Origin: Verrucomicrobiia bacterium
Lineage (GTDB): Bacteria > Verrucomicrobiota > Verrucomicrobiia > Limisphaerales > UBA11358
NCBI GenBank assembly: GCA_049692125.1
Contig: JBAVOO010000038.1
Coordinates: 5,588-69,587 of the forward strand
Length of the DNA stretch: 64,000 bases
Direction: 5' to 3'
Positions 32,940 to 51,583 of this stretch are shown in pieces. The notes beneath the pieces were generated by a model that had not been told where the DNA came from, did not search any database, and saw only the letters and a list, made by a program, of their open reading frames with translations. The translations under genes and the position numbers were made by a program. Position 1 is the first letter of the stretch. Each line of letters opens with the position of its first letter.

Positions 32940-34022
32940 ATGCGTTTGGGGACATGTATTGCACTGTGGCTGTTGATAATCGCGCTAAAGGTTTGCGCGG
33001 ATGAAAAATTGCCGGTGCTCAAGGTGGGTAACGATGTGTTCAGCAACGTGACCGTCGTCGCCGTTACGCCCACGGACATTTACTTCACTTACCCCGGCGG
33101 GATGGCCAATGCCAAATTGAAGAAGCTCGACCCGGAGTGGCAAAAGCATTTTAACTACAACACGACCAACGCGCTGGCGGTGGAGAAAAAACAAACTGAG
33201 GCCAACGCCAAATACCATGCCCATCTCGGCAGTCACCCGGCACTGCCTCCGTCCAACGAAGACCGTCCCGCGCCGGCGAACGTCGACGCGCGCGCGACCG
33301 ATTCGACTTCGCCGCGTGTGCTTTTCATCGGCAACAGCTACACCAGCGTCAACAACCTCCCGCAGATTTTCCATGATGTTGCCGCCAGCGCGGGCCACGC
33401 GCCGTCCGAAATCAAGGCCGTCACCCCTGGCGGGGTGACATTGTATCAACACCTCAATTCTCCCGGCACGTTGAAGCTCATTGACGAAGGAAATTGGGAC
33501 ATTGTCATCCTACAGGCGCAAAGTCAGGAAGCCGCCATGTCCGAGCAATTCGAGAACATGCGCTACTATTTTCTCAAGGGTGCAGCCGGCCTTTACGACC
33601 GCATCAAGGCCGGCAGCCCGCGCGCCAAAATCATCCTCTACCAGACCTGGGCGCGTCACGCCGATTACTGGGATGACCTCAAAGCCGACAGAAGCATCGG
33701 CAACAATCCCACTGACATGCAGGCGCGCATCCGCAAATGGCATCAAAACGCCGCTGCGCAGAAAAACGACTTTATCATCGCGCCCGTCGGTGATGCGTGG
33801 GAACTGAATTACAAAAATCCGAACGCCATCCGCCTTCATGCGCACGACAATTCGCACCCTGCCTTCAACGGCTCGTACCTTGCGGCACTCGTGATTTACG
33901 GTGCCATCTATCATCATCCGCTGAACCTGAACGTCTCCTATCACGGCGATCTCAACTCCGCCGAGACGCTTTATCTTCAGACCATCGCAACGCAGACCAT
34001 GCACATAAATTTTTTGCCGTGA
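32940..34022 (+). CDS. Secreted SGNH/GDSL-like hydrolase family protein
   Basis: Signal-peptide-like N-terminus. FIGNSYT (block I-like) and HDNSHP (block V-like DxxH). Confidence 0.65.
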   Translation: MRLGTCIALWLLIIALKVCADEKLPVLKVGNDVFSNVTVVAVTPTDIYFTYPGGMANAKLKKLDPEWQKHFNYNTTNALAVEKKQTEANAKYHAHLGSHPALPPSNEDRPAPANVDARATDSTSPRVLFIGNSYTSVNNLPQIFHDVAASAGHAPSEIKAVTPGGVTLYQHLNSPGTLKLIDEGNWDIVILQAQSQEAAMSEQFENMRYYFLKGAAGLYDRIKAGSPRAKIILYQTWARHADYWDDLKADRSIGNNPTDMQARIRKWHQNAAAQKNDFIIAPVGDAWELNYKNPNAIRLHAHDNSHPAFNGSYLAALVIYGAIYHHPLNLNVSYHGDLNSAETLYLQTIATQTMHINFLP

Positions 34023-34273
34023 CCGAACATTCTCCATCCATCCGGCATTTTCCACCAGTGGTTGCCCGGAATGAAATCGTTGTGGTCGTTCACATACATT
34101 TGCCACGCGAGCTGCAACTGTTTCAAGTTGCCCAGACACTGGATACCCACAGCCCTGGTTTTGGCTCGGGAAAGAACCGGAAGCAGCAGCGCCGCAAGAA
34201 TGGCGCTGATGGCCATGACCACCAGCAATTCCATCAGGGTGAAGGCGCAGTCTTTTGGCCGCACTTTGTCCAT
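33977..34273 (-). CDS. Prepilin-type N-terminal cleavage/methylation domain protein, short (possibly truncated)
   Basis: AFTLMELLVVMAISAILAALLLP followed by the start of a DUF1559-like region. It is only 98 aa and its 3' end overlaps the convergent gene. Confidence 0.45.
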   Translation of the reverse strand: MDKVRPKDCAFTLMELLVVMAISAILAALLLPVLSRAKTRAVGIQCLGNLKQLQLAWQMYVNDHNDFIPGNHWWKMPDGWRMFGHGKKFMCMVCVAMV

Positions 34274-34688: not shown

Positions 34689-35612
34689 ATGACGCGCTTC
34701 TACGAACAACTCGTCGCGGCATTGGCGGAAAACCGGCCGTTCGCGCTGGCGCTGATTTCCGGCACGAAAGGCTCCAGCCCGCAGCGCATCGGCGCCAAGG
34801 CGCTGTTTTTCCCCGACGGAAAAATCGTCGGCACACTCGGCGGCGGCTGTCTCGAAGCCGAAGTCCACGCCCGCGCCAAAAAAGCCCTGAAGTCCGGCCA
34901 GCCCACAACGTTCGAGATGGTGCTTGATCACAATTTCGGCTGGGACGACGGGTTGATTTGCGGCGGCAGCGTGAGCGGCCTGATTTTGCCGCGCGCGGCG
35001 GAAGCGGCGGCACTCTGGCAAAAACTCGCCGCCGTCACCAAACCGGTTTGCTGGGGCGTGAAAAAAGATTTTTCCATCGCACCGGTGGAATGCGGCGGCG
35101 ACGAATGGTTTTACCAGGAAACGGTTTCGCCGCCGACGGCGCTGTGGATTGCCGGTTCCGGCCATGTCGCGCAGGCCGTCGCGCCGCTGGCCTTGCAATT
35201 GGATTTCGCCGTGACGGTTTTTGATGACCGGCCGGAACTGGCGAACCACCGGATTTTTCCGCCCGCCACGCAACTGCAAGTCGGCGGCTGGCATGAACTC
35301 TTGAAAGTGCCGTTGCCGAAATCGCCCACGTTCGGACTCATCGTCACGCGCGGCCACCAGCATGACGCGTTGGTACTGTCGGAGTGGATTCATCTTCCGT
35401 TTGTTTTTCTCGGCATGATTGGCAGCCGCCGCAAGGCGCGCATCATGCGCGAGCAGTTTTTGAAACAAAACATCGCGTCGGCCGAGCAGTTCGACCGGCT
35501 CGCCTGTCCGGTGGGCCTGGAAATCCAGGCCGTGGGCACGCACGAAATCGCCGTGAGCGTGATGGCCCAGTTCATTCAAAAACGCGCAGAATATGTTAAC
35601 CGTGACAAGTGA
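34689..35612 (+). CDS. xdhC: XdhC/CoxI-family molybdenum-hydroxylase maturation chaperone
   Basis: 307 aa. GSSPQRIGAKALF..DG...GTLGGGCLEAEV and IAGSGHVAQA...VTRGHQHD...GMIGSRRK fit the XdhC architecture. Confidence 0.9.
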   Translation: MTRFYEQLVAALAENRPFALALISGTKGSSPQRIGAKALFFPDGKIVGTLGGGCLEAEVHARAKKALKSGQPTTFEMVLDHNFGWDDGLICGGSVSGLILPRAAEAAALWQKLAAVTKPVCWGVKKDFSIAPVECGGDEWFYQETVSPPTALWIAGSGHVAQAVAPLALQLDFAVTVFDDRPELANHRIFPPATQLQVGGWHELLKVPLPKSPTFGLIVTRGHQHDALVLSEWIHLPFVFLGMIGSRRKARIMREQFLKQNIASAEQFDRLACPVGLEIQAVGTHEIAVSVMAQFIQKRAEYVNRDK

Positions 35613-35657
35613 CGAGTGACACGTGACAGGATTTCGTGTCACCTGTCACCTGTCACA
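35602..35657. repeat. Long imperfect hairpin built from GTGAC(A/C) heptad-like repeats, spanning the xdhC stop to the mocA start
   Basis: Left arm gtgacaagtgacgagtgacacg and right arm gtgtcacctgtcacctgtcac, with about 18/21 pairing. The mocA ATG (35657) follows immediately. Confidence 0.6.
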
Positions 35658-36280
35658 TGCCACCGATTAAGGATCAAACGGTATTGGGCGTGGTCATCCT
35701 TGGCGCGGGCGCGTCGTCGCGGATGGGCCGGCCCAAGCTGCTGCTGCCCTGGCGCGACACCACCATCATCGGCCATTTGCTCAAACAATGGCGCGACCTC
35801 GGCGCGGCGCAAATTGGCATCGTCCTGCGTCCACCAGACGCGCCGCTGGCTGCCGAACTGGACCGGCTGGGTTTTCCGCACGCTGACCGCATTGAAAACC
35901 CGCAACCGGAGCGCGGCATGTTCAGCTCGATTCTCTGTGCAGCAAGCTGGCCCGGCTGGAAGGATGAAATCGCCACCTGGGCCATCGTACTGGGCGACCA
36001 GCCGCATTTGCGTATGGAAATGCTGCGCCAACTGCTGGAATTTCATGGCGCGAACGCCGACGCGGTCTGCCAGCTCGAATTTGACGGGCACGCGCGGCAT
36101 CCGGTTTTGCTGCCGCGCCGGGCATTCAAGGCGCTGAAAGTGTCCCAGGCCGAAACGTTGAAGGATTTTTTGAAACGAACTTCCGTCCGCTGCCTCCGCT
36201 GTTCCGTGGATGAACCCGGTCTGGCGCTGGATCTGGATACGCCGGAGGATTACCAACGGGCAAAGGGTGCCGGCTTGTAG
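35657..36280 (+). CDS. mocA: Molybdenum cofactor cytidylyltransferase (MobA-like NTP transferase, MocA family)
   Basis: VVILGAGASSRMGRPKLLLPW, VLGDQP, GHPVLL-like block and LDLDTPEDY fit MocA/YgfJ. The TAG stop lies inside repeat A5. Confidence 0.85.
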   Translation: MPPIKDQTVLGVVILGAGASSRMGRPKLLLPWRDTTIIGHLLKQWRDLGAAQIGIVLRPPDAPLAAELDRLGFPHADRIENPQPERGMFSSILCAASWPGWKDEIATWAIVLGDQPHLRMEMLRQLLEFHGANADAVCQLEFDGHARHPVLLPRRAFKALKVSQAETLKDFLKRTSVRCLRCSVDEPGLALDLDTPEDYQRAKGAGL

Positions 36281-37757: not shown

Positions 37758-38732
37758 TCATCCGCCGATGGCGGTCATCGGGCGGCAGGGCTGGTATTGA
37801 TTGCGGAACTGGTGTTCCAGCGGTTTCACTCGCAGCGCGGTTTCCAGCAATTCCCGCAATGCGCCATCGCTGGCGCCGCTCCGCAACGCCGCGCGAAGAT
37901 CCACTTCGACATGGTTGCCGAGACAGGGACGCACCTTGCCGTCGGCGGTCAGCCGCATCTTGTTGCAGTTGTCGCAGAAATGCTCGTTCGTCAGCGCGCC
38001 GACGAAGCCAACCATGGCGCCGGTTTGTTTCAGCCGGAAATACTTCGCCGGCCCGTGGCCGAGACGGCACTCCGGCTGCGGAATCAATTCATCGTGCCGG
38101 GACAGGAATTGCATCACCTCGCCGCAGGGCAGGAAATTTTTCTCCGTCAAAACCTCGGTCGTCGTCAGCGGCATCAATTCGATGAGTCGCAGCGGCAGGC
38201 CGTGTTCCGCGGCGAACCGGACCAGCGGCCAGATTTCCGCCTCGTTCACGCCGCGCATGAGCACACAGTTCAGTTTCACGCGTTCAAAACCAGCGTCCAC
38301 CGCCGCGCGGATGCCGGCCAGCACGCGCGCCACGTCGCCGCCGGTGATGCGGTGGTAAATCGCCGGGTCCAGCGCGTCGAGGCTCACGTTCACCGTGCGC
38401 AAGCCGGCATCGCGCAAGGCTTTCGTGAGCGCGGCCAGCTTCATTCCGTTGGTGGAAAGCCCGATGCATTCCACGCCGGGAATTGCCGACATGGCGCGGA
38501 CGATTTCCGGCACGTCGCCGCGCACGAGCGGTTCGCCGCCGGTCAGCCGGAATTTGCGGAAGCCCAGCCCCGCCGCCACGCGCACGACGCGGACGATTTC
38601 CTCCGCCGTCAGATGGTCGGACTGGCGTTCCCAGCCCTTGTAACCCTCCGGCATGCAGTAGAGACAACGCTCGTTGCACCGGTCGGTGACCGAGATGCGC
38701 AGGTAATCAATTTTTCGTCCAAACGGATCCAT
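37758..38732 (-). CDS. moaA: GTP 3',8-cyclase MoaA (radical SAM)
   Basis: YLRISVTDRCNERCLYCMP; C-terminal CDNCNKMRLTADGKVRPCL. Confidence 0.93.
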   Translation of the reverse strand: MDPFGRKIDYLRISVTDRCNERCLYCMPEGYKGWERQSDHLTAEEIVRVVRVAAGLGFRKFRLTGGEPLVRGDVPEIVRAMSAIPGVECIGLSTNGMKLAALTKALRDAGLRTVNVSLDALDPAIYHRITGGDVARVLAGIRAAVDAGFERVKLNCVLMRGVNEAEIWPLVRFAAEHGLPLRLIELMPLTTTEVLTEKNFLPCGEVMQFLSRHDELIPQPECRLGHGPAKYFRLKQTGAMVGFVGALTNEHFCDNCNKMRLTADGKVRPCLGNHVEVDLRAALRSGASDGALRELLETALRVKPLEHQFRNQYQPCRPMTAIGG

Positions 38733-38871: not shown

Positions 38872-39360
38872 TTATTTCTCGTGCGGATCTTCGCCGCGCA
38901 AATGCGCCAGCCCTTCGCGGATGGCCGGCGCGAGAATTTCCAGGCACTCGCGCACTGCCGACGGCCTGCCCGGCAGATTCACAATCAAACACGCGCCGCG
39001 CGTCCCGGCCACGGCGCGCGACAGGATGGCCGTCTTCACCCGCGTCAGCGATTGCATCCGCATTGCCTCGCCGAAACCCGGCAGCTCTTTTTCCAGCACG
39101 GCACTGGTCGCCTCCGGCGTCACATCGCGCGCGGAAATTCCCGTGCCTCCCGTCGTCACCACCATATCACATTTTTGCACGTCGGCGAGCTTTCTCAATG
39201 CCGCCGAAATCAATTCCACCTCATCCGGCACGATAAGCGACTCGAATTTCACGGCGTCGCCGAGAAATTCGCGCAACACGTTCTCAATCTCCGGCCCGCT
39301 GCGGTCGGCGTAAACGCCCGCCGAGGCGCGGTCGCTGACGGTGAGGCGGCCGATTTTCAT
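38872..39360 (-). CDS. mog: Molybdopterin adenylyltransferase MogA
   Basis: VSDRASAGVYADRSGP, TTGGTGISARDVTPEA and PGFGEAMR match E. coli MogA. Confidence 0.88.
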   Translation of the reverse strand: MKIGRLTVSDRASAGVYADRSGPEIENVLREFLGDAVKFESLIVPDEVELISAALRKLADVQKCDMVVTTGGTGISARDVTPEATSAVLEKELPGFGEAMRMQSLTRVKTAILSRAVAGTRGACLIVNLPGRPSAVRECLEILAPAIREGLAHLRGEDPHEK

Positions 39361-39489: not shown

Positions 39490-39948
39490 TCACTCCAAGT
39501 CATGTTTCTCCTTTGTAACCACGTGTACATTTTCAATCCGCATGGTTTTGTCCACCGCCTTGCACATGTCGTATAGCGCCAGCGCGGCCACGGTCACGCC
39601 TGTCAACGCCTCCATCTCCACACCCGTCTGCGCGCAGGTCTCGGCGATGCAGATAATCTCAATTGCCACCCGTCCAACGCGAAAACTCACCTCGACATGA
39701 TCCAGCCCCAGCGGATGACAAAGCGGAATCAGCTCCGCCGTTCGTTTGGCGGCCTGGATGCCGGCGATTTGCGCCACGGTCAGCACGTCGCCCTTCGGCA
39801 AGACATTCTTTTTGAGGGCGTGAATGGTGGCTGGCGCACAAACCAGCCTGCCCTCAGCCACAGCGCGACGGCGCTGCACCGGCTTGTGGCCGACGTTGAC
39901 CATGCGCGCGCCGCCGTCGGCGTCGAGATGTGAAAATGTCTTTTTCAT
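39490..39948 (-). CDS. moaC: Cyclic pyranopterin monophosphate synthase MoaC
   Basis: MVNVGHKP...KGDVLTVAQIAGIQAAKRTAELIPLCHPL...GVEMEALT. Confidence 0.92.
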   Translation of the reverse strand: MKKTFSHLDADGGARMVNVGHKPVQRRRAVAEGRLVCAPATIHALKKNVLPKGDVLTVAQIAGIQAAKRTAELIPLCHPLGLDHVEVSFRVGRVAIEIICIAETCAQTGVEMEALTGVTVAALALYDMCKAVDKTMRIENVHVVTKEKHDLE

Positions 39949-40016: not shown

Positions 40017-41675
40017 TTATCCGCCGCCAAGCATAGCCGTCACTGGCAAAAAATCCACCCCGGCGAATTTTTCGATTACACCCTGGTTGGCCGGCACGCG
40101 GACCAGCGCATTCGCCGCCGCCAGGCAGGTGATGTCGCCGGAACTCGCCCAGGCCAGCGGGCGCAGGCGCGGCGCGGCATCATTCCATTCCCATCGGGCC
40201 GGCCAGAGCGTATCGCGCGGGCAGGGTTTGTCGTCGAGTTTTTCAGCAAGCTGCCCGCGCAGAAATTCCGGTGGTACACCGCCGGTCAGACCCGCCAGCG
40301 CCGTGGCGACGGCAAAATGGAAACAGACGAAATGCGAGAGCGGGTTGCCCGGCAGCCCGAAGGCCACGCGCGGGCCGTTCACGCCGAAGATCAGCGGCCG
40401 GCCGGGGCGCAGGTCAATCTGGCTGAATACGATTTCAAAGCCGAGCCGCTCAAATAACGCACGGGTAAAATCGGTTTCGCCCACGCTGGCGCCGCCGGAA
40501 ACCAGCAGCACGTCGGCGTTGCCGATAGCCGATAGCCGATAGCCGATAGCCGATTTTGCCCCCTCGAAATCCTCCGGCAAATGGGTTTGCTCCAGGTCGC
40601 ATGGAAAACTCTGGAGCAGGGCGCGGATGAGGATGGAATTGCTGTTGCGAATCTGGCCCGGTTTCGGCGTTCGGTCCGGCGGCACGATTTCATCACCGGT
40701 CGTAAAATGAACGACGCGCAATCGCGGGCTGACGGACGGATTGACATTTCCCGTCGTTGCCAGGATTGCCAGCGCACCGGCATTCAGTTTTGTTCCCGTG
40801 GACACAAGCGGCTGGCCTTGCCGCACCTCCTCGCCGCGCCGCCGGACGTTTGTCGAAATCTCCTGGCGCAAGAGACGGAGTTTGTCGCCGTCGCGTTCGA
40901 CGTATTCCTGCATCACCACGCGCAGGTTGTCGCACGGCAGCGCCGCGCCGGTCGCCACGCGCACGGCTTCGCCAGGTTTGAGCGGGCGCGGTTTCCAGTC
41001 GGCAGCATGAATCGTGTCCACGACGGAAAAAGTTTTCGACTCATCATCGGCGAGGATCGCATAACCGTCGCGCGTCGAGCGGTCCACCGGCGGCAAATCT
41101 TCCGGCGCGCAAACCGTTTCGCGCAGGACGCGCCCCAGCGCCTCGGCCAACGGCGTGCGTACGGCGGGCAACGGTTGGCAACGGGAGCGGATTTCTACAA
41201 TTGCTTCGTCCAGAGAGAGCGGTTGGAGCGCCGAGCACCGGCTCGGCGTGGTTCCAATGATATTTTGATTCGTGCCGAGGCGGTGCTCGGCGTTCCGGGC
41301 GCTTCGTTTCCAAATCGGCACGTCCTGCTTGAGGCGGTCCATGAATTCAGCCAGCAACGCAATGGCCTCGCCGCGATGCGGCGACGCCACGCCGACGTAA
41401 ATGGCCGTTTCGCCGGCGGGAATGACGCCGACGCGATGAATCACCCTGGCCGCCCGGCAGGGATGGCGCGCGGAAATGTCCTGCAGCAGCCGTCGGATTT
41501 CGCGCCCGGCCATTTCGGGATAGGCTTCGTATTCGAGGGCGCGGATGGCCTGGCCGTTTTCCTCACCACGAACCACCCCGCGAAATTCAAGCCACGCGCC
41601 GGCCGTGCCGGGTTGCCCTGGCGGTGAAATATTTTCCGCGATGGGCTGGTCGGTGAATTGGATTTCGATTTCCAT
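40017..41675 (-). CDS. MoaE-MoeA fusion (molybdopterin synthase catalytic subunit + molybdopterin molybdotransferase)
   Basis: Residues 1 to about 135 are MoaE (EYEAYPEMA...HRVGVIPAGE...SPHRGEAI...DVPIWK). From LSLDEAIV...AEALGRVLRE...STRDGYA onward it is MoeA. Single uninterrupted ORF of 552 aa. Confidence 0.9.
   Translation of the reverse strand: MEIEIQFTDQPIAENISPPGQPGTAGAWLEFRGVVRGEENGQAIRALEYEAYPEMAGREIRRLLQDISARHPCRAARVIHRVGVIPAGETAIYVGVASPHRGEAIALLAEFMDRLKQDVPIWKRSARNAEHRLGTNQNIIGTTPSRCSALQPLSLDEAIVEIRSRCQPLPAVRTPLAEALGRVLRETVCAPEDLPPVDRSTRDGYAILADDESKTFSVVDTIHAADWKPRPLKPGEAVRVATGAALPCDNLRVVMQEYVERDGDKLRLLRQEISTNVRRRGEEVRQGQPLVSTGTKLNAGALAILATTGNVNPSVSPRLRVVHFTTGDEIVPPDRTPKPGQIRNSNSILIRALLQSFPCDLEQTHLPEDFEGAKSAIGYRLSAIGNADVLLVSGGASVGETDFTRALFERLGFEIVFSQIDLRPGRPLIFGVNGPRVAFGLPGNPLSHFVCFHFAVATALAGLTGGVPPEFLRGQLAEKLDDKPCPRDTLWPARWEWNDAAPRLRPLAWASSGDITCLAAANALVRVPANQGVIEKFAGVDFLPVTAMLGGG
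40521..40554. repeat. Tandem heptanucleotide GCCGATA x4.8 inside the MoeA-coding part
   Basis: gccgata gccgata gccgata gccgata gccgat, read directly. Encodes ...SAIGYRLSAIG... on the minus strand. Confidence 0.85.
41225..41296. repeat. Family D repeat forming the MoaE/MoeA linker
   Basis: 72 bp, ggagcgccgagcaccggctcggc ... gccgaggcggtgctcggcgttcc. Encodes ...RNAEHRLGTNQNIIGTTPSRCSAL.... Confidence 0.75.
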
Positions 41676-41687
41676 GTGACAAATGGT

Positions 41688-41927
41688 TCAGCCGCCGGAC
41701 ACCGGCGGAATGAGTGCAACCTCGTCGCTATCGGCAAAAATGGCGTCGGGGGCGGCGTACTCCCAATTCCGCGCCAGCCGGACATTCGGGCGATGTGCGG
41801 CCAGTGCCGGAAAACGCTGCAATAACTCGGTCCAGAGCTGCGGGGCATTGAGCGGCGACGCGGCTGCGAGTTCCACGGCATCGCAGCGGGTGGCATCCTT
41901 GAGTTGGGCAAAAAAGAGAACACGCAT
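41688..41927 (-). CDS. moaD: Molybdopterin synthase sulfur-carrier subunit MoaD
   Basis: About 79 aa, ThiS/MoaD-like, ending in ...IPPVSGG. ATG at 41927; the ORF-track TTG at 41942 is less likely. Confidence 0.85.
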   Translation of the reverse strand: MRVLFFAQLKDATRCDAVELAAASPLNAPQLWTELLQRFPALAAHRPNVRLARNWEYAAPDAIFADSDEVALIPPVSGG

Positions 41928-41938
41928 GGCCGGAGAAT

Positions 41939-42700
41939 TCAAGCAGTGGCTTCAATCAACAATTTTCCGCCGGCAAAAATCAGCACGCCCGCCAGCACCC
42001 GGCTGAAGGTGACGCTGCTCCAGCGCCGCGCGCCGAAGTGCGTGCCGAGCAGCGCGCCGATGACGGCCGGCAGCGTGAGCCAGAGCAGCGGCCCGGCGTG
42101 CGTGATTTTTTCCCAGCCCGTGCCGGCGAGTCCGGCGATGGAGTTGAGCACGATGAACCCGGCCGCGATGCCGCCGGTGGTTTTCGGTTTCACCCAGCGG
42201 AACAGATACAGCAGCGGACTTAAAAAAACGCCGCCGCCAATGCCGGTCAGTCCCGCCAGGAATCCCAGCACGGCGCCGATGAGCAGCGCCAGCGGCAGGA
42301 AAAACTCATGCAGCACCACGTCGTCGGTCTGCCAGCGCGAACGCAGGAGCAGGACAAGTCCCGCCGCCGTCAGCACCGCGCCAAGGATGATTTTATAGAC
42401 CTGCGGACTGACGTGGACCCGGCTGCCCAGCCACGCGCACGGCACCGAGACGACCGCGAACGACAGCAGCACGCGCCAGTCGAAATGTCCCGCCCAGCCA
42501 AACCGCCACCACGCGATGCCGGCGACCAGAACATTGGCAATCAACACCGCCACGCGCGCGGACACGGGTGCGACTCCAACCAGCGCCAGTGCGGCGAGAT
42601 AACCCGTTGCGCCGCCGTGGCCGACTGACGAATAAAAAAACGCCACCGCAAAGACGGCGGCGAGCAAGATGGTCCAATTAAATGTCGTCAGGTCGTGCAT
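41939..42700 (-). CDS. TauE/SafE (TSUP, DUF81) family anion permease
   Basis: 253 aa, about 8 TM segments. SSVGHGGATGY and GIGGGVFLSPLL are duplicated TSUP motifs. Confidence 0.88.
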   Translation of the reverse strand: MHDLTTFNWTILLAAVFAVAFFYSSVGHGGATGYLAALALVGVAPVSARVAVLIANVLVAGIAWWRFGWAGHFDWRVLLSFAVVSVPCAWLGSRVHVSPQVYKIILGAVLTAAGLVLLLRSRWQTDDVVLHEFFLPLALLIGAVLGFLAGLTGIGGGVFLSPLLYLFRWVKPKTTGGIAAGFIVLNSIAGLAGTGWEKITHAGPLLWLTLPAVIGALLGTHFGARRWSSVTFSRVLAGVLIFAGGKLLIEATA

Positions 42701-42736
42701 GATGATTTTGAATTATTGATTTTTCACCGTGCCAGT

Positions 42737-43678
42737 TCAACGGGAAAGCCGGTAGAAACGCTGCGGCTGGTTTGTTGTGGTGGTGTCGTCAAACTGAATC
42801 GTTCCTGCGCTGTCGGCTGTCGCCATTCCAATTGTCTGCCAGTTGGTCGTTGTCAAATCGGAACTGGCCTGCACCTGGTATTGCAAGTTCGTTCCGCCGA
42901 TGCCGGTCAAATGGAAAAGGCCATTTGTAAAATAACCGGAAAGAATTTCAAGCGGCACCGTGTTGAGTGTGGCGGTGACATGAATCAGCGGCTCGTTGCC
43001 GCGTCCGTAGCTGTAAGAATTGAACAAGTATGCAATCTGGCCGTCTGCCGCATAGAAAAGAAACGTCACGTCGCCGCCGCCCGACACGTCGGCCACGAGG
43101 TTTGTATTGAGCGGCAACGCGTAAGTGACCGGCACGTTGTTACCGGGCGGCACATAGGTGTTTGTGCAAAGGATTTCGTGCGCGCCGGACAGCAAGCCGG
43201 GAAGTGAATCGTAGGTGACTCCATCCGTTGTGGGCAGGTTCGGCGTTCCGGTTCCTTCCACCCAATCATCATTGGACAGCCATTCGATGACAAAATTACC
43301 ACCGTTGATCACGGGGAAGATCGCATTATTTGGCTGCACATTGCTCGTGCCATAGTTGCTGGTCAATTCGAGCGAAATGTTCGTGATTGTCCAGTTGCCC
43401 GCACCGTAGTTTGTGTTGAACAGGGCAACGGCATTCGAGAGGTTGAATTTGATGACGCTCTGGAATTCACCTTTCACCGACGCGGCCGGAGCGACGACCA
43501 GTGTGCCCGCTCCTCCAAAGTTTAACCCCGTCAAGTCGGCTCCTTCCGGGTTGTTCGGCGAACCGGTGGCAAGAAACGCGTCGGCGTAATCAGTGCCGAT
43601 ATAAGTGACCTGCGCCTTTGAGATCGAACCAAGGCACAGCAGCGTGATGGCAAAAACGATTGCTGGGCGGCGGCTCAT
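42737..43678 (-). CDS. Secreted protein, paralog of the next gene, with a C-terminal beta-sandwich-like tail (...RFYRLSR)
   Basis: Signal peptide. Long blocks are shared with 43675-44448 (DAFL..GSP...GAGTL.VAPA.S.KGEF.SVI.FN...YGAGNWTIT...QPNNAIF...W..EGTG). Confidence 0.7.
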   Translation of the reverse strand: MSRRPAIVFAITLLCLGSISKAQVTYIGTDYADAFLATGSPNNPEGADLTGLNFGGAGTLVVAPAASVKGEFQSVIKFNLSNAVALFNTNYGAGNWTITNISLELTSNYGTSNVQPNNAIFPVINGGNFVIEWLSNDDWVEGTGTPNLPTTDGVTYDSLPGLLSGAHEILCTNTYVPPGNNVPVTYALPLNTNLVADVSGGGDVTFLFYAADGQIAYLFNSYSYGRGNEPLIHVTATLNTVPLEILSGYFTNGLFHLTGIGGTNLQYQVQASSDLTTTNWQTIGMATADSAGTIQFDDTTTTNQPQRFYRLSR

Positions 43679-44448
43679 CTTTTTCTTTTCTGCCTGCGTG
43701 AAAATAGAAACCCGCCGAGCGATGCGGCCAGCAATGCTGCCGCGTTCGGTTCTGGAACCGGGGCTGCCGTGACCGTCAGTTCGGGGTGATTGGATGCAAA
43801 CTCTCTGGAATTGAACAGGTAACTGACCTGATTGTCTGCCGCGTAAAAATAAAGCGAAACGGCTCCTCCGGCAGCGGCGTCGGACACGAGGTTGGCGTCG
43901 AGTGACAGTGAATAATTGGCGTAAACGTTGTTGCCCGGAGGGGTGTAGGTATAAGTGCCCAGCGAGTCATAGCCGGGCGAGAGCAAGCTGGGGATTGAAT
44001 TGAAGCTCACGGCTCCGTTGGCCGCGCCGTTGCCGCCGCCCGTGCCCTCCACCCAACTGTCATTCGCCAGCCAATCAATGCCAAAGCTGCCAGCGTTGAT
44101 GGTGTTGAAGATGGCGTTGTTGGGTTGCGCGCCTTGGGTGCCGAAGTTGCTGGCCAGCGATAACGTCAAACCGGTGATGGTCCAATTTCCTGCGCCGTAG
44201 GTCGTGTTGAACTGGCTGACCGCACTGGCGGTGTTAAACATGATCACGCTGTCAAATTCGCCTTTGGCTGAAGATGCCGGAGCTATGGCGAGAGTGCCGG
44301 CACTGCCGAAATTCAGGGTGGGCGAAGCGCCCGAGAGAAACGCGTCGGCGGTGGTGGTATTGATGGTGAATGACGTGTCCGCCTTGCCGGCGAAGGGGAA
44401 GGCGAGAATTATGCCGCAGGTTGCGGCGATCAATGATTTATGTTTCAT
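43675..44448 (-). CDS. PEP-CTERM-anchored secreted protein (paralog of 42737-43678)
   Basis: Signal peptide. C-terminal VPEPNAAALLAASLGGFLFSRRQKRKR is a PEP-CTERM sorting signal. ATGA overlap with the downstream paralog. Confidence 0.8.
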   Translation of the reverse strand: MKHKSLIAATCGIILAFPFAGKADTSFTINTTTADAFLSGASPTLNFGSAGTLAIAPASSAKGEFDSVIMFNTASAVSQFNTTYGAGNWTITGLTLSLASNFGTQGAQPNNAIFNTINAGSFGIDWLANDSWVEGTGGGNGAANGAVSFNSIPSLLSPGYDSLGTYTYTPPGNNVYANYSLSLDANLVSDAAAGGAVSLYFYAADNQVSYLFNSREFASNHPELTVTAAPVPEPNAAALLAASLGGFLFSRRQKRKR

Positions 44449-44479
44449 GGTGTTTGATTTTGTTGTTGGTTTTAGGGTT

Positions 44480-45328
44480 TCATTCGTGAAGGGTTGCTAT
44501 CGGGAAAAAGAGCGGCCCCGGCCCATTGGTCTGGCAGCCAAATTCGAGCAGAAAATTCTGCACCTGGTCGGAAAGCAGGAAGTCGGACAACGCCCGTGCT
44601 CCGGCGTAATTGGCCTGCGGGAACTTCTTGGGATTGGTTTCCATGACGATGAACGGACGCCGCATGACCGGGTCGCCTTTGACCAGAATTCCCATCCCCT
44701 CCGCAGGCATCCTGCCCGTCTGTGCCGGAATGTAACCGACCACCACGTAGGCGTTGTTGGTGCGCGCAAATTGCAGGATGTTCCACTTGGAAATCGTGTC
44801 GTCCTTGAGAACCCAATCGCCTTTGGGTTCGGTGTCCGCGAGCCGCCACAAGGTATGCACCAGTTCGCGGCTGCCGATGCCTTGAAAATCCACGAAGCGC
44901 GCCTTGGCCTCGGCGATTTTGCGAAGCGCGGCAGCGCCGTTGGTCATGCCCCGGATATGTGCCGGGTCGTCCGGCGGGCCGACAATGCATAATTCATTGC
45001 GGGTCCACGGCCGCATATTGACGCCAAATCCGTCGGCGGCGAGATCGGTGGTGATGTCGCCCGAATGCATCGTGAGCAAATCCACTTTTCCCGCGCGCAT
45101 GGCGGCATCCAGGATGGGCCGCGGGCCGGTCGCCACGACTTCAACCCGATAACCGGTTTGCGCCTCAAACATTCTGGCAATCTCCGGCCACAAACCGGTC
45201 ATGGTCATGCCGCCGATAACCGCACAGCGAACGACATGATTATCAGCCGCCGGTTCAACCTTGCGGCGGCATGAAGCTGCGAGCAGCAAAGAAAATAAAG
45301 CGAAGCAAATCAGGTTTTTATTTTTCAC
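44480..45328 (-). CDS. TupA-like periplasmic oxyanion (tungstate/molybdate-type) binding protein
   Basis: Lipoprotein-like N-terminus. NELCIVGPPDDPAHIRG and RRPFIVMETNPKKFPQANYAGARALSDFLLS parallel TupA blocks as I recall them (NDFVIVGP..DPAGI.G; NPY.VI.VNP.K.P.VN). The TupA TTTS anion motif is replaced by GGMTMTG. Confidence 0.7.
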   Translation of the reverse strand: MKNKNLICFALFSLLLAASCRRKVEPAADNHVVRCAVIGGMTMTGLWPEIARMFEAQTGYRVEVVATGPRPILDAAMRAGKVDLLTMHSGDITTDLAADGFGVNMRPWTRNELCIVGPPDDPAHIRGMTNGAAALRKIAEAKARFVDFQGIGSRELVHTLWRLADTEPKGDWVLKDDTISKWNILQFARTNNAYVVVGYIPAQTGRMPAEGMGILVKGDPVMRRPFIVMETNPKKFPQANYAGARALSDFLLSDQVQNFLLEFGCQTNGPGPLFFPIATLHE

Positions 45329-45346
45329 AGGCGGTTTCTCTTTTCA

Positions 45347-46066
45347 TCAATAATTGTGGGCCGAGGCATCGCTGGCCGTGCCGGTGAGCCAGCGCACATC
45401 GGCAAGCCCCGGATCACCCACACCGCAGCCCACATACGAACCGGCAAAGGATTGCACCTGACCGGCAAGGAACAGCAAATTAATCCGGGCGGCATGGCGC
45501 GCGACGATGCTGTAAGGCTGGGCTGATGGATACGTTGAAGCGTAAGGGCCGGGAGCATCAGCCATCGCAACGACGCACGCCGGCAGCATCACATCACTGA
45601 ACTTTGTGGCCAGCGGCAGGTTCCACGGCGAAAGATTCATGTTCATTCCATAGGGCAAAAAATAAGTTCCGCCGGGATCATTGGCGGTCGGGCAAATGAA
45701 AATGGATTGGGTGTGGGCGGCGGGTTTCACATTGTTCGTGACCATTATTTGAAAAGCAAGGAGGCCAAAATACACGGGCAATGCGTTGAACCAATCATCG
45801 GGCCGGTTGATCTGAGCAAGCACTTGCACGCCTTGACCGCGCCTCGGCAGATAATCATTGTTGTCGTCGGCATACATCCCGTAAGCCAGTCCCCACTGAC
45901 ACAGGTTGCCAACACACTGGGTGGAACCCGCCTTTTCCCTGGCTTTCGCCAACGCCGGCAAAAGCATTGCGGCAAGAATGGCGATGATGGCGATGACCGC
46001 CAGCAGTTCGATGAGCGTGAACGCACGTCGGCGGGCAACTGGTTTTGGGACACACTTGTTTTTCAC
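45347..46066 (-). CDS. Prepilin-type N-terminal cleavage/methylation domain protein (DUF1559/H-X9-DG-like)
   Basis: [32 protein letters not shown]... is typical of the large PVC-clade family. Confidence 0.8.
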
Positions 46067-46087: not shown

Positions 46088-46113
46088 GCGTTATATTTTG
46101 TCAAATATAACGC
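46088..46113. promoter_or_regulatory. Candidate ModE operator: perfect inverted repeat GCGTTATAT-N8-ATATAACGC
   Basis: 9-bp perfect arms, AT-rich TATAT-type half sites. It lies between the modE-like gene and the first gene of the downstream Mo-related operon. Confidence 0.6.
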
Positions 46114-46145: not shown

Positions 46146-46517
46146 TTATGACTTGAGGTGCGACTGCATTTTGTTCCAGGTCGCCCTTGTTGCCTTTGCG
46201 GCCTTTGCCTCCATTTGCCGGTAAAGCGCTAGCATTCGGCGTCCCGATTCCGTCAATTTGGCGCCGCCGCCGCCTTCACCGCCGTGCGCGGCGAGGACGA
46301 GCGGTTGCTTGAAGCAGCGGTTCATCGTCTGGACGAGCGACCACGCGCGCATGTAGGACATGTCCATCCGTTTTGCCGCCTGGTTGATGGAGCCGGTCTG
46401 CCCGATCAGTGCGAGCAACTCCGCCTTGCCGGGCCCCAGCGCGATGTCGCCGCCACAAACAAGGCGGAAGCGGGGTTGCACCGAACGGGTGCGGATTGAT
46501 TTTGCTTTTTTCCTCAT
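46146..46517 (-). CDS. ModE N-terminal-domain-type winged-helix regulator (no Mop domains)
   Basis: ALGPGKAELLALIGQTGSINQAAKRMDMSYMRAWSLVQTMN...GGGGAKLTESGRRML matches the ModE DNA-binding domain. It is only about 123 aa from ATG 46517. Confidence 0.75.
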   Translation of the reverse strand: MRKKAKSIRTRSVQPRFRLVCGGDIALGPGKAELLALIGQTGSINQAAKRMDMSYMRAWSLVQTMNRCFKQPLVLAAHGGEGGGGAKLTESGRRMLALYRQMEAKAAKATRATWNKMQSHLKS

Positions 46518-46907: not shown

Positions 46908-48020
46908 TCATGTCCTCTCCATTGCGGCAGTATATGCGCCACGGCGCGCGGCGCGGTTGCATTGGGCACGATGAAGCAGAGCTTGCTGTGCCGCTTTCAC
47001 GTTGGCCTCCTTGCCCTGCCAAATCTCCAAAGCCGGTTGCTGGATGGCGCGGGCAAACGAAAACGCCAGTGCCCAAGGCAATTTCGACTTGAATCGAAGA
47101 TTCATGGTATTCAAACGGGCCGAGGCCAGTTCAGCGGATTGGCCGCCGGACAAAAATGCAATCCCCGGAACCGCCGCGGGGACGGTTCGCCATAGACTCT
47201 TCACCGTGATGTTGGCCACCTCGTCCACATCTTCCATCTCTTCCGGCTGGCGGTCGGTCAATCGCACTTGAAACTGTTGTTCACCGATGGCCGCTTCTTC
47301 CACTTCTTGATGCGGGGGACAGGTGAAGCCCGGCAGCACCATGTTGGGTTTGAGAATCATGCCTTCCAGCATCACGCGCTGTGAATTCAGTTGGTTGAAA
47401 ACGGTTCGCAGGACTTCCTCCGTCACCGCGCGGCACCGCTCCAGGGTATGGTCGCCGTCCATGAGCACTTCCGGCTCGACAACGGGAACCATGCCGGCTT
47501 CCTGGCACAACGCGGCGTAGCGCGCCAGCGCGTGCGCGTTGGCCTCGATGCAACTGCGGCTGGGAATGCCAACCCCGATGGCAATCACCGCGCGCCACTT
47601 GGCAAAACGCGCGCCCATCTGAAAATATTCCTTGAGGCGTTCACGCAATCCGTCCAGACCTTCGGTGATTTTTTCGCCGGGATGAGCCGCCAGGTCCTTG
47701 GCTCCGGTATCTACTTTGATGCCGGGAATGATTCCCGCATCGGTTAGGACTTTGAGAAACGGTGTGCCGTCCTTCTTCTGCTGTCGAATCGTTTCGTCGT
47801 AAAGAATCGCGCCACTGATGCACTCGCCGAGACTGGGTGTGGTCACGATTAACTCCCGATACGCGCGCCGGGCCTCCACCGTTTGCGGGATGTCCAGCTT
47901 CGCGAAGCGTTTGTTGCAGGTGGGATTGCTTTCATCCATCGCCAACAATCCCTTGTCGTCGGCGACCAGCGCCCTCACGTTGTCTATCAACGTTTGCGTG
48001 ATCATTTCGGATTGCTCCAT
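46908..48020 (-). CDS. fba: Class I fructose-bisphosphate aldolase
   Basis: [22 protein letters not shown] (Schiff-base Lys region) and FLSGGQS. An alternative ATG at 48005 would give an ATGA overlap with the xfp stop. Confidence 0.9.
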
Positions 48021-50371
48021 TTCCAGTTGCGGATTTCCGGCAGGTCCTCGCCGTTTTTATCAATGTATTGCTTGTGTTCGATCAGCTTGTCCTTGAGTTG
48101 CTGCTTCAAGTAGATGCCCTTGTCGCCGGTCTGCGGCAGGCGATCAATCGTGTCCATCACGAGGTGGAAGCGGTCCAGTTCGTTCAGCACCGTCATGTCG
48201 AAGGGCGTGGTGATGGTGCCCTCTTCCTTGTAGCCGCGGACGTGAATGTTGTCGTGGTTGGTGCGGCGGTAAGTCAGCCGGTGGATCAACCACGGGTAAG
48301 CATGGTAGGCGAAGATGACCGGCTTGTCCCTGGTGAAGAGCTCGTCGAAATCCATGTCGCTCAATCCGTGCGGGTGCTCGGTTGGCGGCTCCAGCTTCAT
48401 GAGGTCAACGACGTTGACCACCCGGATTTTCAGGTCGGGCAGATGTTCGCGCATGATGGATACGGCAGCCAGCGTCTCCAACGTGGGCACGTCGCCACAA
48501 CAGGCCATGACCACGTCGGGCGCAGCGCCCTGGTCGTTGCTGGCCCATTGCCAGATGCCGATGCCTTCGGTGCAATGCTTGACGGCGGCGTCCATCGTCA
48601 GCCACTGCGGCGCCGGGTGTTTGCCCGCGATCACGACGTTGACGTAATGGCGGCTGCGCAGGCAGTGGTCCATCACCGACAGCAGGCAGTTCGCATCCGG
48701 CGGCAGGTAAACCCGCACAATCTCGGCCTTCTTGTTCACGACATGGTCAATGAAACCGGGATCCTGGTGGGTGAAACCGTTGTGGTCCTGGCGCCAGACA
48801 TGCGAAGCCAGCAGGTAGTTTAACGAGGCGATCTTCCGCCGCCACGGCAGGTGCGCCGTGACCTTCAGCCACTTGGCATGCTGGTTGAACATCGAATCCA
48901 CAATGTGGATGAACGCCTCGTAGCAATTGAAGAGGCCATGCCGCCCGGTGAGCAGATAACCTTCCAACCAGCCTTCGGATTGATGTTCGCTCAACATTTC
49001 CATCACGCGCCCGGCGGGCGCGAGAAATTCGTCGTTCGGCACGGTCGCGGCATCCCATTGGCGTTTGGTCACTTCAAACAGCGCCTCCAAACCGTTGGAG
49101 AGCGTCTCGTCCGGGCCGAAGACGCGGAAATTCCGCTGCTCACTGTTCAACTTCGCCACATCGCGCAGGAAAGGCCCGAGCACATGCGTGTCGCCGATGC
49201 CGCGTATCCCCGGCGTGGGCACGGCTTCCGCGTAGTCGCGGAAATCCGGCATCCGAAGGTCGCGGAGCAGCATGCCGCCGTTGGCGTGGGGATTTGCACC
49301 CATGCGTCGTTTTCCTTTGGGCGCAAGCTCGGCCAGTTCCGGTTTCAATCGGCCTTGCTCATCGAAAAGTTCCTCTGGCCGGTAGCTCCTCAGCCAGTCT
49401 TCCAACAACTTGAGGTGTTCGGGATGGGTGGCCGGGTCGGAGAGCGGCACCTGGTGCGCCCGGAAGGTGCCTTCAACCTGCAGGCCATCAACGACTTTCG
49501 GCCCCGTCCAGCCCTTGGGTGAATTGAGGACGATCATCGGCCAGCGCGGACGCGTGAGATCACCGTGGGCGCGGGCCTTCTCCTGGATTTTTTTTATCTG
49601 CTCCACCGCGGTGTCAAGCGCGGTGGCCATGGCTTCATGCATCAGCACTGGCTCGTGACCCTCGACGAAGATGGGCGTCCATCCGTAGCCGCGGAGCAAC
49701 TGTTCCAATTCCTCGCGGGTGATGCGGGCGAGGACGGTCGGGTTGGAAATCTTGTAACCGTTCAAGTGCAGGATCGGCAGCACTGCGCCGTCGGTGGCCG
49801 GATTGAGAAACTTGTTGGAATGCCACGCCGTGGCCAGCGGTCCGGTTTCCGCCTCACCGTCGCCAACGACGCAGGCGACGACGAGATCAGGATTGTCGAA
49901 CACTGCCCCGAACGAATGGCTGAGCGAATAGCCCAGCTCGCCACCCTCATGGATCGAGCCCGGGCACTCCGGCGATGCGTGGCTGGGAATACCTCCGGGA
50001 AACGAAAACTGGATAAAGAGCTTCCGCAGCCCGGCCTCATCCTGGCTGATGTTGGGATAGATCTCACTATAAGTGCCCTCGAGGTAAGTGTTGCCCACGA
50101 CGGCCGGGCCGCCATGCCCGGGGCCGGAGACGTAAATCATGTTCAGGTCGTATTTCTTGATGACCCGGTTCAGATGCACGTAGATGAAGTTCTGTCCAGG
50201 CGTCGTGCCCCAGTGTCCCAGCAGCATGTGCTTCACGTCCGCGAGCGTGAGCGGCCGCTTCAACAGCGGATTGTCGTAAAGATAAATCTGGCCGACCGAC
50301 AGATAGTTGGCGGCGCGCCAGTAGGCATCCATCTGGTGGAGCAGTTCCGGCGTGAGTGTATTGGTTTTCAT
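48002..50371 (-). CDS. xfp: Xylulose-5-phosphate/fructose-6-phosphate phosphoketolase
   Basis: 789 aa. [37 protein letters not shown] and GDGEAETGP are phosphoketolase signatures. Confidence 0.95.
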
Positions 50372-50374
50372 GAT

Positions 50375-51583
50375 TCAATCCTTTTTGTTCACCGCGCCGG
50401 CTCCGAGAATGCGACATACCGAGCGCGCAATCATCAGTTCTTCGTCCGTGCGAATCACGCGAGCCGTGACCCGGCTGGCGTCCGTGGAAATCACCCCCGC
50501 AGTCTCCGCATTGCGTGACTCATTCAGTTCAATGCCGAGGAAGCCCAGTCCATCACAGATGCGTGCGCGGACGAGCGGCGCATTTTCGCCGATGCCTCCG
50601 GCGAAGACGAGCGTGTCCAGTCCGCCGAGCGCGGCGGCAAAGGAGCCGATCCACTTTTTCGCCTGATAACAAAACAGCGCCACGGCTTCCGCCGCCCGAA
50701 CGTCAGCGGCTTCCCGCGTGAGCAGGTCGCGCATGTCGGAGCTGGTTTCCGAAACGCCGAGCAGTCCCGACTTGTGGTTCACCATTTCGTAAAATTGTTT
50801 GGTGGTCATCTGCTCGGTTCTTGCCAGATACGGCGCCAGGCCGGGATCCAGATCGCCGGAGCGGGTGCTCATCACCAATCCCGCCGTCGGCGTGAAGCCC
50901 ATGCTGGTGTCGATGCTTTTGCCGTCGCGAACGGCAGCCAGACTCGCGCCGTTGCCGAGATGCGCAAGAATCACGCGGCCAGTCGTTGTTGCCGGGTCGC
51001 CAAGCCGCGCGAGCTCTTCCATCAGATAAGCATAGGACAAACCATGGAAACCGTAGCGTTGAATTCCCTTGGCGTCGAAGCGTCGCGGAATCGGAAAGAG
51101 CTTGGCCACGCGCGGCATGGTTTGGTGAAACGCCGTGTCGAAACAGGCCACCTGGGGCAGTTTCGGATGACGCCGGCGGAACGCCTCAATCAGTTCGATC
51201 TCGCGGGGCAGATGATCCGGGTCGTATGGCCTGATACGATGCAGTTCATCCAACAAGTCCTGGGTGACAATCTCAGGCTCGGTGTGTTTCATCCCATGGA
51301 CCACGCGGTGTCCGACAGCCCGGACCGATTCGAAACCATTCTGTTTTTCCAGCCAATCAATCAAGGAATTCGCTGCCGATTTGTGGTCGGCGGCGGCGAG
51401 GCTGAGGCTCCCCTGCCCTTTCCCGGTCGGGTCATTGAAGGTCAGATTTGTCCCGCTCAGTCCGATGCGGTCAACCTTTCCATAAAGCCCTCGCTTCAGC
51501 GGTTCGCCAACTTGATAGAGCGCGAACTTGATGCTCGACGAGCCGCCGTTGATGGTCAGGATGTGTGGGTTAGCGGGTTTCAT
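50375..51583 (-). CDS. ackA: Acetate kinase
   Basis: ILTINGGSSSIKFALY, VGHRVVHG, AHLGNGAS and FAGGIGEN. Confidence 0.95.
   Translation of the reverse strand: MKPANPHILTINGGSSSIKFALYQVGEPLKRGLYGKVDRIGLSGTNLTFNDPTGKGQGSLSLAAADHKSAANSLIDWLEKQNGFESVRAVGHRVVHGMKHTEPEIVTQDLLDELHRIRPYDPDHLPREIELIEAFRRRHPKLPQVACFDTAFHQTMPRVAKLFPIPRRFDAKGIQRYGFHGLSYAYLMEELARLGDPATTTGRVILAHLGNGASLAAVRDGKSIDTSMGFTPTAGLVMSTRSGDLDPGLAPYLARTEQMTTKQFYEMVNHKSGLLGVSETSSDMRDLLTREAADVRAAEAVALFCYQAKKWIGSFAAALGGLDTLVFAGGIGENAPLVRARICDGLGFLGIELNESRNAETAGVISTDASRVTARVIRTDEELMIARSVCRILGAGAVNKKD

Follow-up and report, generated by a model that had tools for sequence, protein, structure and literature searches.

The locus described here raises the question of how molybdate enters a cell whose molybdenum cofactor (Moco) biosynthesis genes are accompanied by a single permease of the TauE/TSUP family in place of an ATP-binding cassette (ABC) transporter. 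It lies in a 64-kb stretch of a Limisphaerales (Verrucomicrobiota) metagenome-assembled genome, hereafter called the window. An unbroken string of minus-strand genes runs there from about 46.6 to 37.7 kb, in the order modE-like regulator, operator, prepilin-like gene, solute-binding protein (SBP), two DNRLRE paralogs, TauE/TSUP permease (hereafter the TSUP), moaD, moaE-moeA, moaC, mog and moaA. We read this string as a putative molybdenum (Mo) acquisition and Moco biosynthesis operon behind an operator of the Escherichia coli ModE type. The gene or genes immediately upstream of moaD would form a transporter slot, occupied in this clade either by canonical modABC or by the 253-amino-acid TSUP. 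The TSUP itself would be an inner-membrane importer of molybdate, possibly also of tungstate, acting as a secondary carrier that replaces ModABC and needs neither ATP nor an obligatory binding protein. On the strength of sequence and gene context, we put the probability that the TSUP imports molybdate at roughly 65%.

The transporter slot upstream of moaD

The TSUP gene (41939-42700) stops 11 nt before the start of moaD (41688-41927), which in turn is followed by a moaE-moeA fusion (40017-41675). From the prepilin gene to moaE-moeA, the successive intergenic distances are 18, 31, -4 (an ATGA overlap), 36, 11 and 12 nt. A preliminary description of this DNA, made before the present comparison, had listed the same genes in the same places on the minus strand, with gaps of 11 to 36 nt around the TSUP, moaD and moaE-moeA, and all of this was borne out. 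It had also reported that the window holds no modB/modC or tupB/tupC, which agrees with a six-frame motif scan: the translated 64 kb contains no ABC ATPase signature together with a Walker A motif, and the sole LSGGQ lies inside a class I aldolase.

The locus was compared with about 120 related Limisphaerales loci from soil and peat Verrucomicrobia, each viewed within ±10 kb of its seed match. Two sets were used for counting, one of 28 Limisphaerales genome loci seeded with the TSUP and one of 81 loci seeded with the SBP (locus L039 and 80 metagenome loci). The TSUPs of the first set are 76 to 97% identical, indicating strong constraint on the protein in this position. The slot was scored as holding the TSUP in all 28 loci. 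At least two moa genes lie beside the TSUP in 24 of the 28 loci, mostly in the order TSUP-moaD-moaE/moeA-moaC-mog-moaA, and neither a ModA, ModB or ModC match nor an ABC ATPase signature was found in any of them.

Related operons carry a conventional transporter at the same point. L039, a 4.64-Mb contig with an SBP homologue, has the same operon with modA-modB-modC exactly in the position of the TSUP, and each of the three products scores above an NCBIfam (TIGRFAM) equivalog cutoff. Among the SBP-seeded loci as a whole, the slot holds the TSUP in 13 and modABC in 23, and no locus has both; 11 have neither, and in 34 the contig ends too early to tell. Four more loci, seeded with ModB, all place modABC directly upstream of moaD-moaE/moeA-moaC-mog, so that modABC fills the slot in all 5 loci counted as ModB seeded.

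The clearest example is given by loci L042 and L049, which differ only in an exact exchange at this point. Their flanks share 98.2% identity across 4172 bp on the upstream (left) side and 99.5% across 2544 bp on the downstream (right) side. Homology breaks off just past the stop of the second DNRLRE gene and restarts at the moaD ATG; the intervening insert is modABC (2560 bp) in one locus and the TSUP (805 bp) in the other. Loci L099 and L104 show the same TSUP-modABC exchange, with flanks that are 82 to 85% identical. This pattern is best described as nonorthologous displacement in place, and it is mainly because of this displacement that the TSUP would be expected to do the job of ModABC. 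The view that the TSUP stands in for a Mo ABC transporter, already put forward in the preliminary description for Mo or tungsten (W), is therefore well supported by comparative evidence. Furthermore, the swap of modABC and TSUP between near-identical strains amounts to a ready-made natural genetic experiment.

The ModE-type operator and its regulator

A perfect palindrome, GCGTTATATTT-GACA-AAATATAACGC (11+11; 46088-46113, no strand assigned), separates the modE-like gene from the prepilin gene. It occurs only once in the window and has a TTGACA hexamer at its center. The E. coli ModE consensus is CGNTATATA-N6-TATATANCG (quoted in PMC545781). Read in that layout, the site becomes CGTTATATT-TGACAA-AATATAACG (46089-46112) and matches 16 of the 18 specified positions, as a ModE-regulon operator should. 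The same palindrome, nearly invariant and usually letter for letter, recurs among the TSUP-seeded loci (16 of 28) and the SBP-seeded loci (39 of 81). Wherever it was found, it precedes the first gene of the operon, whatever the arrangement: the prepilin gene if the genes between operator and transporter are present, and the TSUP, about 60 nt downstream, if they are absent. Its match to the consensus, its uniqueness in the window and its conservation across loci make the assignment as a ModE-type operator, first suggested as a candidate in the preliminary description, well supported.

The modE-like gene (46146-46517, with the longest open reading frame extending to 46583) encodes a regulator of 123 amino acids according to gene finders (range, 123 to 145), which consists of an N-terminal ModE_repress/HTH DNA-binding domain only. 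The match to the ModE_repress domain model TIGR00637 (88 bits; E, 3e-25) lies below the cutoff of 98.5, and HTH_1 was matched as well. ModE proteins made up of the DNA-binding domain alone are known in Desulfovibrio (PMC545781), and a modE-like gene upstream of the operon is conserved in related loci. One related 20.8-kb locus (L092) carries four ModE-type boxes, at 3774, 9221, 11777 and 18409.

The TSUP and its wider family

The TSUP matches PF01925 (TC 2.A.102) with 111.2 bits, well above the cutoff of 32.6, and covers model positions 1 to 237 of 237. In its AF2 model (pLDDT, 80.5; pTM, 0.81), two repeats of four long helices give the 4+4 architecture of about eight helices that is typical of TSUPs, in agreement with hydropathy. 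Within each repeat, a Gly-rich motif (GHGG at 27-30 in one, GIGGG at 153-157 in the other) is followed by a short, broken helix. The internal repeat was not detected when the two halves were compared with each other by BLAST. No solved homologue was found by sequence, and a fold search gave no match at an E value of 0.001 or below; the best geometric match, to BacA/UppP (TM, 0.55; E, 0.07), was not taken as meaningful.

In a library clustered at 50% identity, where 316 TSUP cluster representatives reach an E value of 1e-30 or below, the TSUP clade falls into one cluster, whose representative is 79% identical to the window protein, and the next relatives are at most 53% identical. A TSUP with 46 to 47% identity (L125:1-9658 and L126) closes a nif cluster, in which it comes after the nifDK, nifEN and nifB homologues and shares a 4-nt overlap with the gene before it. 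Besides four Oxidored_nitro genes (nifD/K/E/N-like) and a nifB-like gene, this cluster includes two P-II genes and a 2Fe-2S thioredoxin-like gene. For this part of the family, it is a second and independent setting in which Mo is in demand. Overall, gene context argues for molybdate rather than a sulfur anion as the probable substrate of the window TSUP.

Several observations weigh against molybdate import by the TSUP. TSUPs are otherwise linked to sulfur anions. Among the six readable contexts of more distant relatives, the five other than the nif case (44 to 53% identity) lie in uninformative contexts or in ones with no Mo genes nearby, so that the Mo link is established only for the tight TSUP clade and the single nif case. 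The regulator has no Mop/TOBE molybdate-binding domain and hence differs from a full-length di-Mop ModE. Finally, the absence of an ABC transporter applies to the 64-kb window and the ±10-kb flanks, which leaves room for modABC, tupABC or wtpABC elsewhere in the genome.

The first two of these points are also what favors a role in sulfur metabolism, in which the TSUP would carry sulfate, sulfite or thiosulfate, either as a passenger in the Moco operon or as a sulfur supplier for MoaD thiocarboxylation. The family is indeed annotated as sulfite exporter, and it has members that take up sulfate. However, a sulfur anion carrier would not be expected to exchange precisely with modABC in otherwise near-identical operons, nor to stand first after the ModE operator in those loci where no other genes intervene. 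Moco sulfur is supplied by cysteine desulfurase and sulfurtransferase systems, for which a dedicated anion carrier is not required. A sulfur anion as the substrate is therefore considered very unlikely.

The last point leads to another possibility, namely that the TSUP carries molybdate merely as an auxiliary or low-affinity route while a canonical Mo/W ABC transporter encoded elsewhere does the main work. Many bacteria do have redundant oxyanion routes (PMC6147048), and an ABC system beyond the compared regions would have escaped notice. On the other hand, every modABC locus recovered from the clade has modABC in the very slot of the moa operon that is held here by the TSUP. No large contig was common to the TSUP and ModB match lists, in a comparison of low power; the three short coincidences (1071, 1369 and 2815 bp) are close to chance expectation, so that this argument against an auxiliary role is a weak one. 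We consider such a role unlikely and retain import by the TSUP as the replacement for ModABC.

The envelope cassette

The four genes between operator and TSUP form a separate accessory cassette (in general a prepilin gene, the SBP gene and one or two DNRLRE genes), belonging to the same ModE-box regulon and occurring with either transporter or alone. In the window, its first gene (45347-46066) encodes a prepilin-type, pseudopilin-like envelope protein with matches to N_methyl (30 bits) and TIGR02532, both above cutoff. This agrees with the prepilin half of the earlier DUF1559/prepilin-type label. The DUF1559 half was put too firmly, since the match to DUF1559 (SBP_bac_10) is below threshold, with 15.4 bits against a cutoff of 23.3 over 34 residues, and the L039 ortholog matches only faintly. 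Little literature on DUF1559 was found.

The SBP gene (44480-45328) is followed by a gene for a secreted DNRLRE/CBM96-like protein with a PEP-CTERM anchor (43675-44448), which scores above cutoff for NF033679 DNRLRE (35 bits; cutoff, 34) and CBM96 (26.5 bits; cutoff, 26) and reaches 22 bits for TIGR02595 (cutoff, 16). Its paralog (42737-43678) lacks PEP-CTERM and gave no family match of its own; the two are 54% identical over 217 amino acids (E, 5e-74). The pair had been correctly described as paralogous secreted proteins, one of them with PEP-CTERM, whose genes overlap by ATGA (4 nt). The second paralog ends in a different C-terminal domain of about 80 amino acids (42737-42990, …NWQTIG…RFYRLSR) with no family match, possibly an alternative domain for sorting or anchoring.

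The preliminary description had the TupA-like SBP feeding the TSUP, and had suggested the co-occurrence of the two near Moco genes as a check. In such a scheme the SBP would capture molybdate or tungstate and deliver it to a binding-protein-dependent secondary transporter, as in TRAP or TTT systems; the likeness to these exists only under this model, and the window SBP has no homology to DctP or TctC. SBP and TSUP do lie in a common ModE-box operon in the window, as they do in about one-third of the TSUP loci, and the closest solved relatives of the SBP are tungstate-binding proteins. However, the co-occurrence is inconsistent. The cassette is absent beside the TSUP in 19 to 20 of the 28 TSUP-seeded loci, whereas in 23 of the 81 SBP-seeded loci it lies upstream of a modABC that includes its own ModA, and in 11 it stands alone. 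The only constant neighbor of the SBP is the prepilin gene, directly upstream in 70 of the 81 loci, and this neighbor is no membrane permease. The order of the DNRLRE genes varies among these loci, and in one locus (L030) a prepilin gene and a DNRLRE gene stand before the TSUP while the SBP is missing from between the two.

Because the cassette is so often missing beside the TSUP, accompanies modABC or stands alone, the SBP is not a specific partner of the TSUP. The residues with which TupA holds its ligand are not conserved in the SBP either, as described below, and we regard direct delivery from SBP to TSUP as quite unlikely. Stand-alone copies of the cassette cut both ways, as genomes with a TSUP could carry a cassette elsewhere; a looser functional cooperation of SBP and TSUP is possible for that reason.

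In 4 of the 11 loci with the cassette alone, a ModE box precedes the prepilin gene. A ModE-type palindrome leads a prepilin-SBP(-DNRLRE) cassette in L066, L067, L070, L072, L076 to L079, L083, L088, L090, L096 and L119; these loci have no adjacent transporter or contigs too short to show one, and no modE, TSUP or modABC gene was seen beside the cassette. A cassette that has its own ModE palindrome and no modE, TSUP or modABC beside it is suggested to be a member of the Mo regulon in its own right. We propose that its most likely site of action is outside the inner membrane, where it may, for example, capture or concentrate a Mo species in the envelope.

Two further observations concern the cassette. 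At L074:1-2284, a fragment of a second TSUP, 42% identical, is followed directly by a ModE box, a prepilin gene and an SBP gene, which may be a further way in which TSUP and cassette are combined. In L122 (1355-1819) and L123 (2879-3304), only the C-terminal part of a DNRLRE paralog persists upstream of modA, apparently as the relic of an accessory cassette that has decayed.

The solute-binding protein

The SBP matches SBP_bac_11 (E, 9e-13), and its closest solved homologues by sequence are the TupA structures 3LR1, 3MUQ, 3KN3 and 5MY5 (E, 9e-24 to 5e-13). A fold search with an AF2 model of low confidence (pLDDT, 63) likewise placed TupA structures first and ModA next. TupA, a class II periplasmic binding protein, is thus the nearest known relative, and at the family level the earlier label of TupA-like was justified. 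As an assignment to TupA itself it was not: the match to the TupA equivalog model NF041772 reaches 50.1 bits against a cutoff of 400, and no tupB or tupC partner was found, since neither an ABC permease nor an ABC ATPase is encoded in the window and the only ABC system adjacent in related loci is modABC with its own ModA. The SBP is instead paired with a prepilin-like gene.

The oxyanion site of TupA is formed by Thr9-11, Ser12, His59, Arg118, Thr124 and Asp170 (PMC5517513). In the SBP, the TTTS stretch is replaced by VIGG (V37-I38-G39-G40), of which I38, G39 and G40 are invariant in the family; the SRG segment that carries Arg118 is deleted or replaced, and the TDRGT segment that carries Asp170 has become VVG. 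The only TupA ligand residue kept is His59, as H88. The residues found in their place vary little or not at all within the subfamily, so that the cleft is conserved and retooled rather than decayed. We therefore view the SBP as a divergent sister of TupA with a remodeled binding cleft and not as TupA. Its place in the regulon suggests that its ligand is some form of Mo. The lipobox-like LLAASC, whose Cys20 is conserved in at least 90% of the family, suggests that the SBP is a lipoprotein.

Transporter and cassette can be brought together in one scheme. The bacterial TSUP would import molybdate in place of ModABC, and a ModE-regulated envelope module, consisting of the pseudopilin-like protein, the retooled TupA-family lipoprotein and the PEP-CTERM/DNRLRE surface proteins, would scavenge Mo in forms other than free MoO4(2-), in acidic peat for example protonated molybdic acid or Mo in organic complexes. 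The module would then hand Mo to whichever inner-membrane transporter is present. This combined scheme is tentative and, taken as a whole, rather unlikely.

Relation to known transporters

Surveys and reviews of prokaryotic Mo/W uptake up to 2026 list only ModABC, WtpABC and TupABC (PMC6147048; PMC13144720). Compared with an E. coli-type ModABC under ModE, the window system shares the place in the operon, the type of operator, the link to Moco biosynthesis and presumably substrate and direction. It differs in that the TSUP is a single membrane protein of the secondary-carrier type, with no ATPase, ABC permease or dedicated ModA, and in that the regulator has a DNA-binding domain only.

Within the TauE/TSUP family, a link to Mo transport has been reported for the rice protein OsDISMO1 (2025; PMC12227400). 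However, OsDISMO1 is a eukaryotic protein that acts in Mo distribution within the plant, with an unsettled direction of transport, and it is likened to the window TSUP here by family. Import of a tetrahedral oxyanion is shared with TSUP sulfate importers, namely a TauE-family protein of Pseudomonas fluorescens (TK06_RS10770; PMC11535334) and, as far as it is cited in PMC5840216, the TSUP "CysZ" of Corynebacterium glutamicum. The role of these importers was deduced from operon context and complementation. In contrast to the window TSUP, which lies in a context of ModE, modABC and Moco genes, they occur in a context of sulfate assimilation. No report linking a bacterial TauE, TSUP or DUF81 protein to molybdate was found in the literature searched, which excluded most subscription journals, so that this absence is not proof. 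Hence, the transporter family and the logic of the operon are known, and what would be new is the functional assignment, which was not found reported for bacteria.

If correct, a TSUP importer would add an uptake route to the three known ABC systems and could explain part of the 278 Mo-using bacteria without a known transporter (PMC6147048). It would also alter the scoring of Mo acquisition in genomes and metagenomes, where such TSUPs are now annotated as "sulfite exporter", and would provide a bacterial counterpart to the TauE-type Mo transporter of plants. The uncharacterized cassette behind the ModE box merits a study of its own. It ties a member of the huge uncharacterized expansion of prepilin-type proteins in the PVC group to a defined nutrient regulon, and thereby makes its function testable.

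Other genes of the window

Among the Moco biosynthesis genes, moaD was identified with TIGR01682 (68 bits; cutoff, 66) and the moaE-moeA fusion with the Pfam families MoaE, MoeA_N, MoCF_biosynth and MoeA_C. Domain searches and gene calls identified moaC (39490-39948), a mog/moaB-type gene (38872-39360) and moaA (37758-38732), all on the minus strand. At Rfam gathering thresholds, the window showed no Moco riboswitch, and a scan for terminators and promoters inside the gene string gave nothing beyond the expectation from shuffled sequence.

The window also encodes a xanthine dehydrogenase-family molybdoenzyme on the plus strand (348-2995), with a 2Fe-2S subunit and a 724-amino-acid Mo subunit, as well as XdhC and an NTP_transf_3 (MocA/MobA-like) protein; 348-2995 and 34689-36280, both on the plus strand, cover these Mo enzyme genes. 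Taken together, the three indicate that the organism needs Mo and that the Moco produced by this locus probably serves, at least in part, as a dinucleotide cofactor of xanthine dehydrogenase-family enzymes. Beside xdhC, at 32940-34273, a 98-amino-acid prepilin-type (N_methyl) gene overlaps the end of a 360-amino-acid gene of no recognized family, and is another member of the prepilin-type expansion near Mo-related genes.

Directly upstream of the Mo locus, on the minus strand (46908-51583), lie genes for a class I fructose-bisphosphate aldolase, a phosphoketolase (XFP) and an acetate kinase, followed by a HAD hydrolase and a glycogen phosphorylase. This order is kept in the closest relatives.

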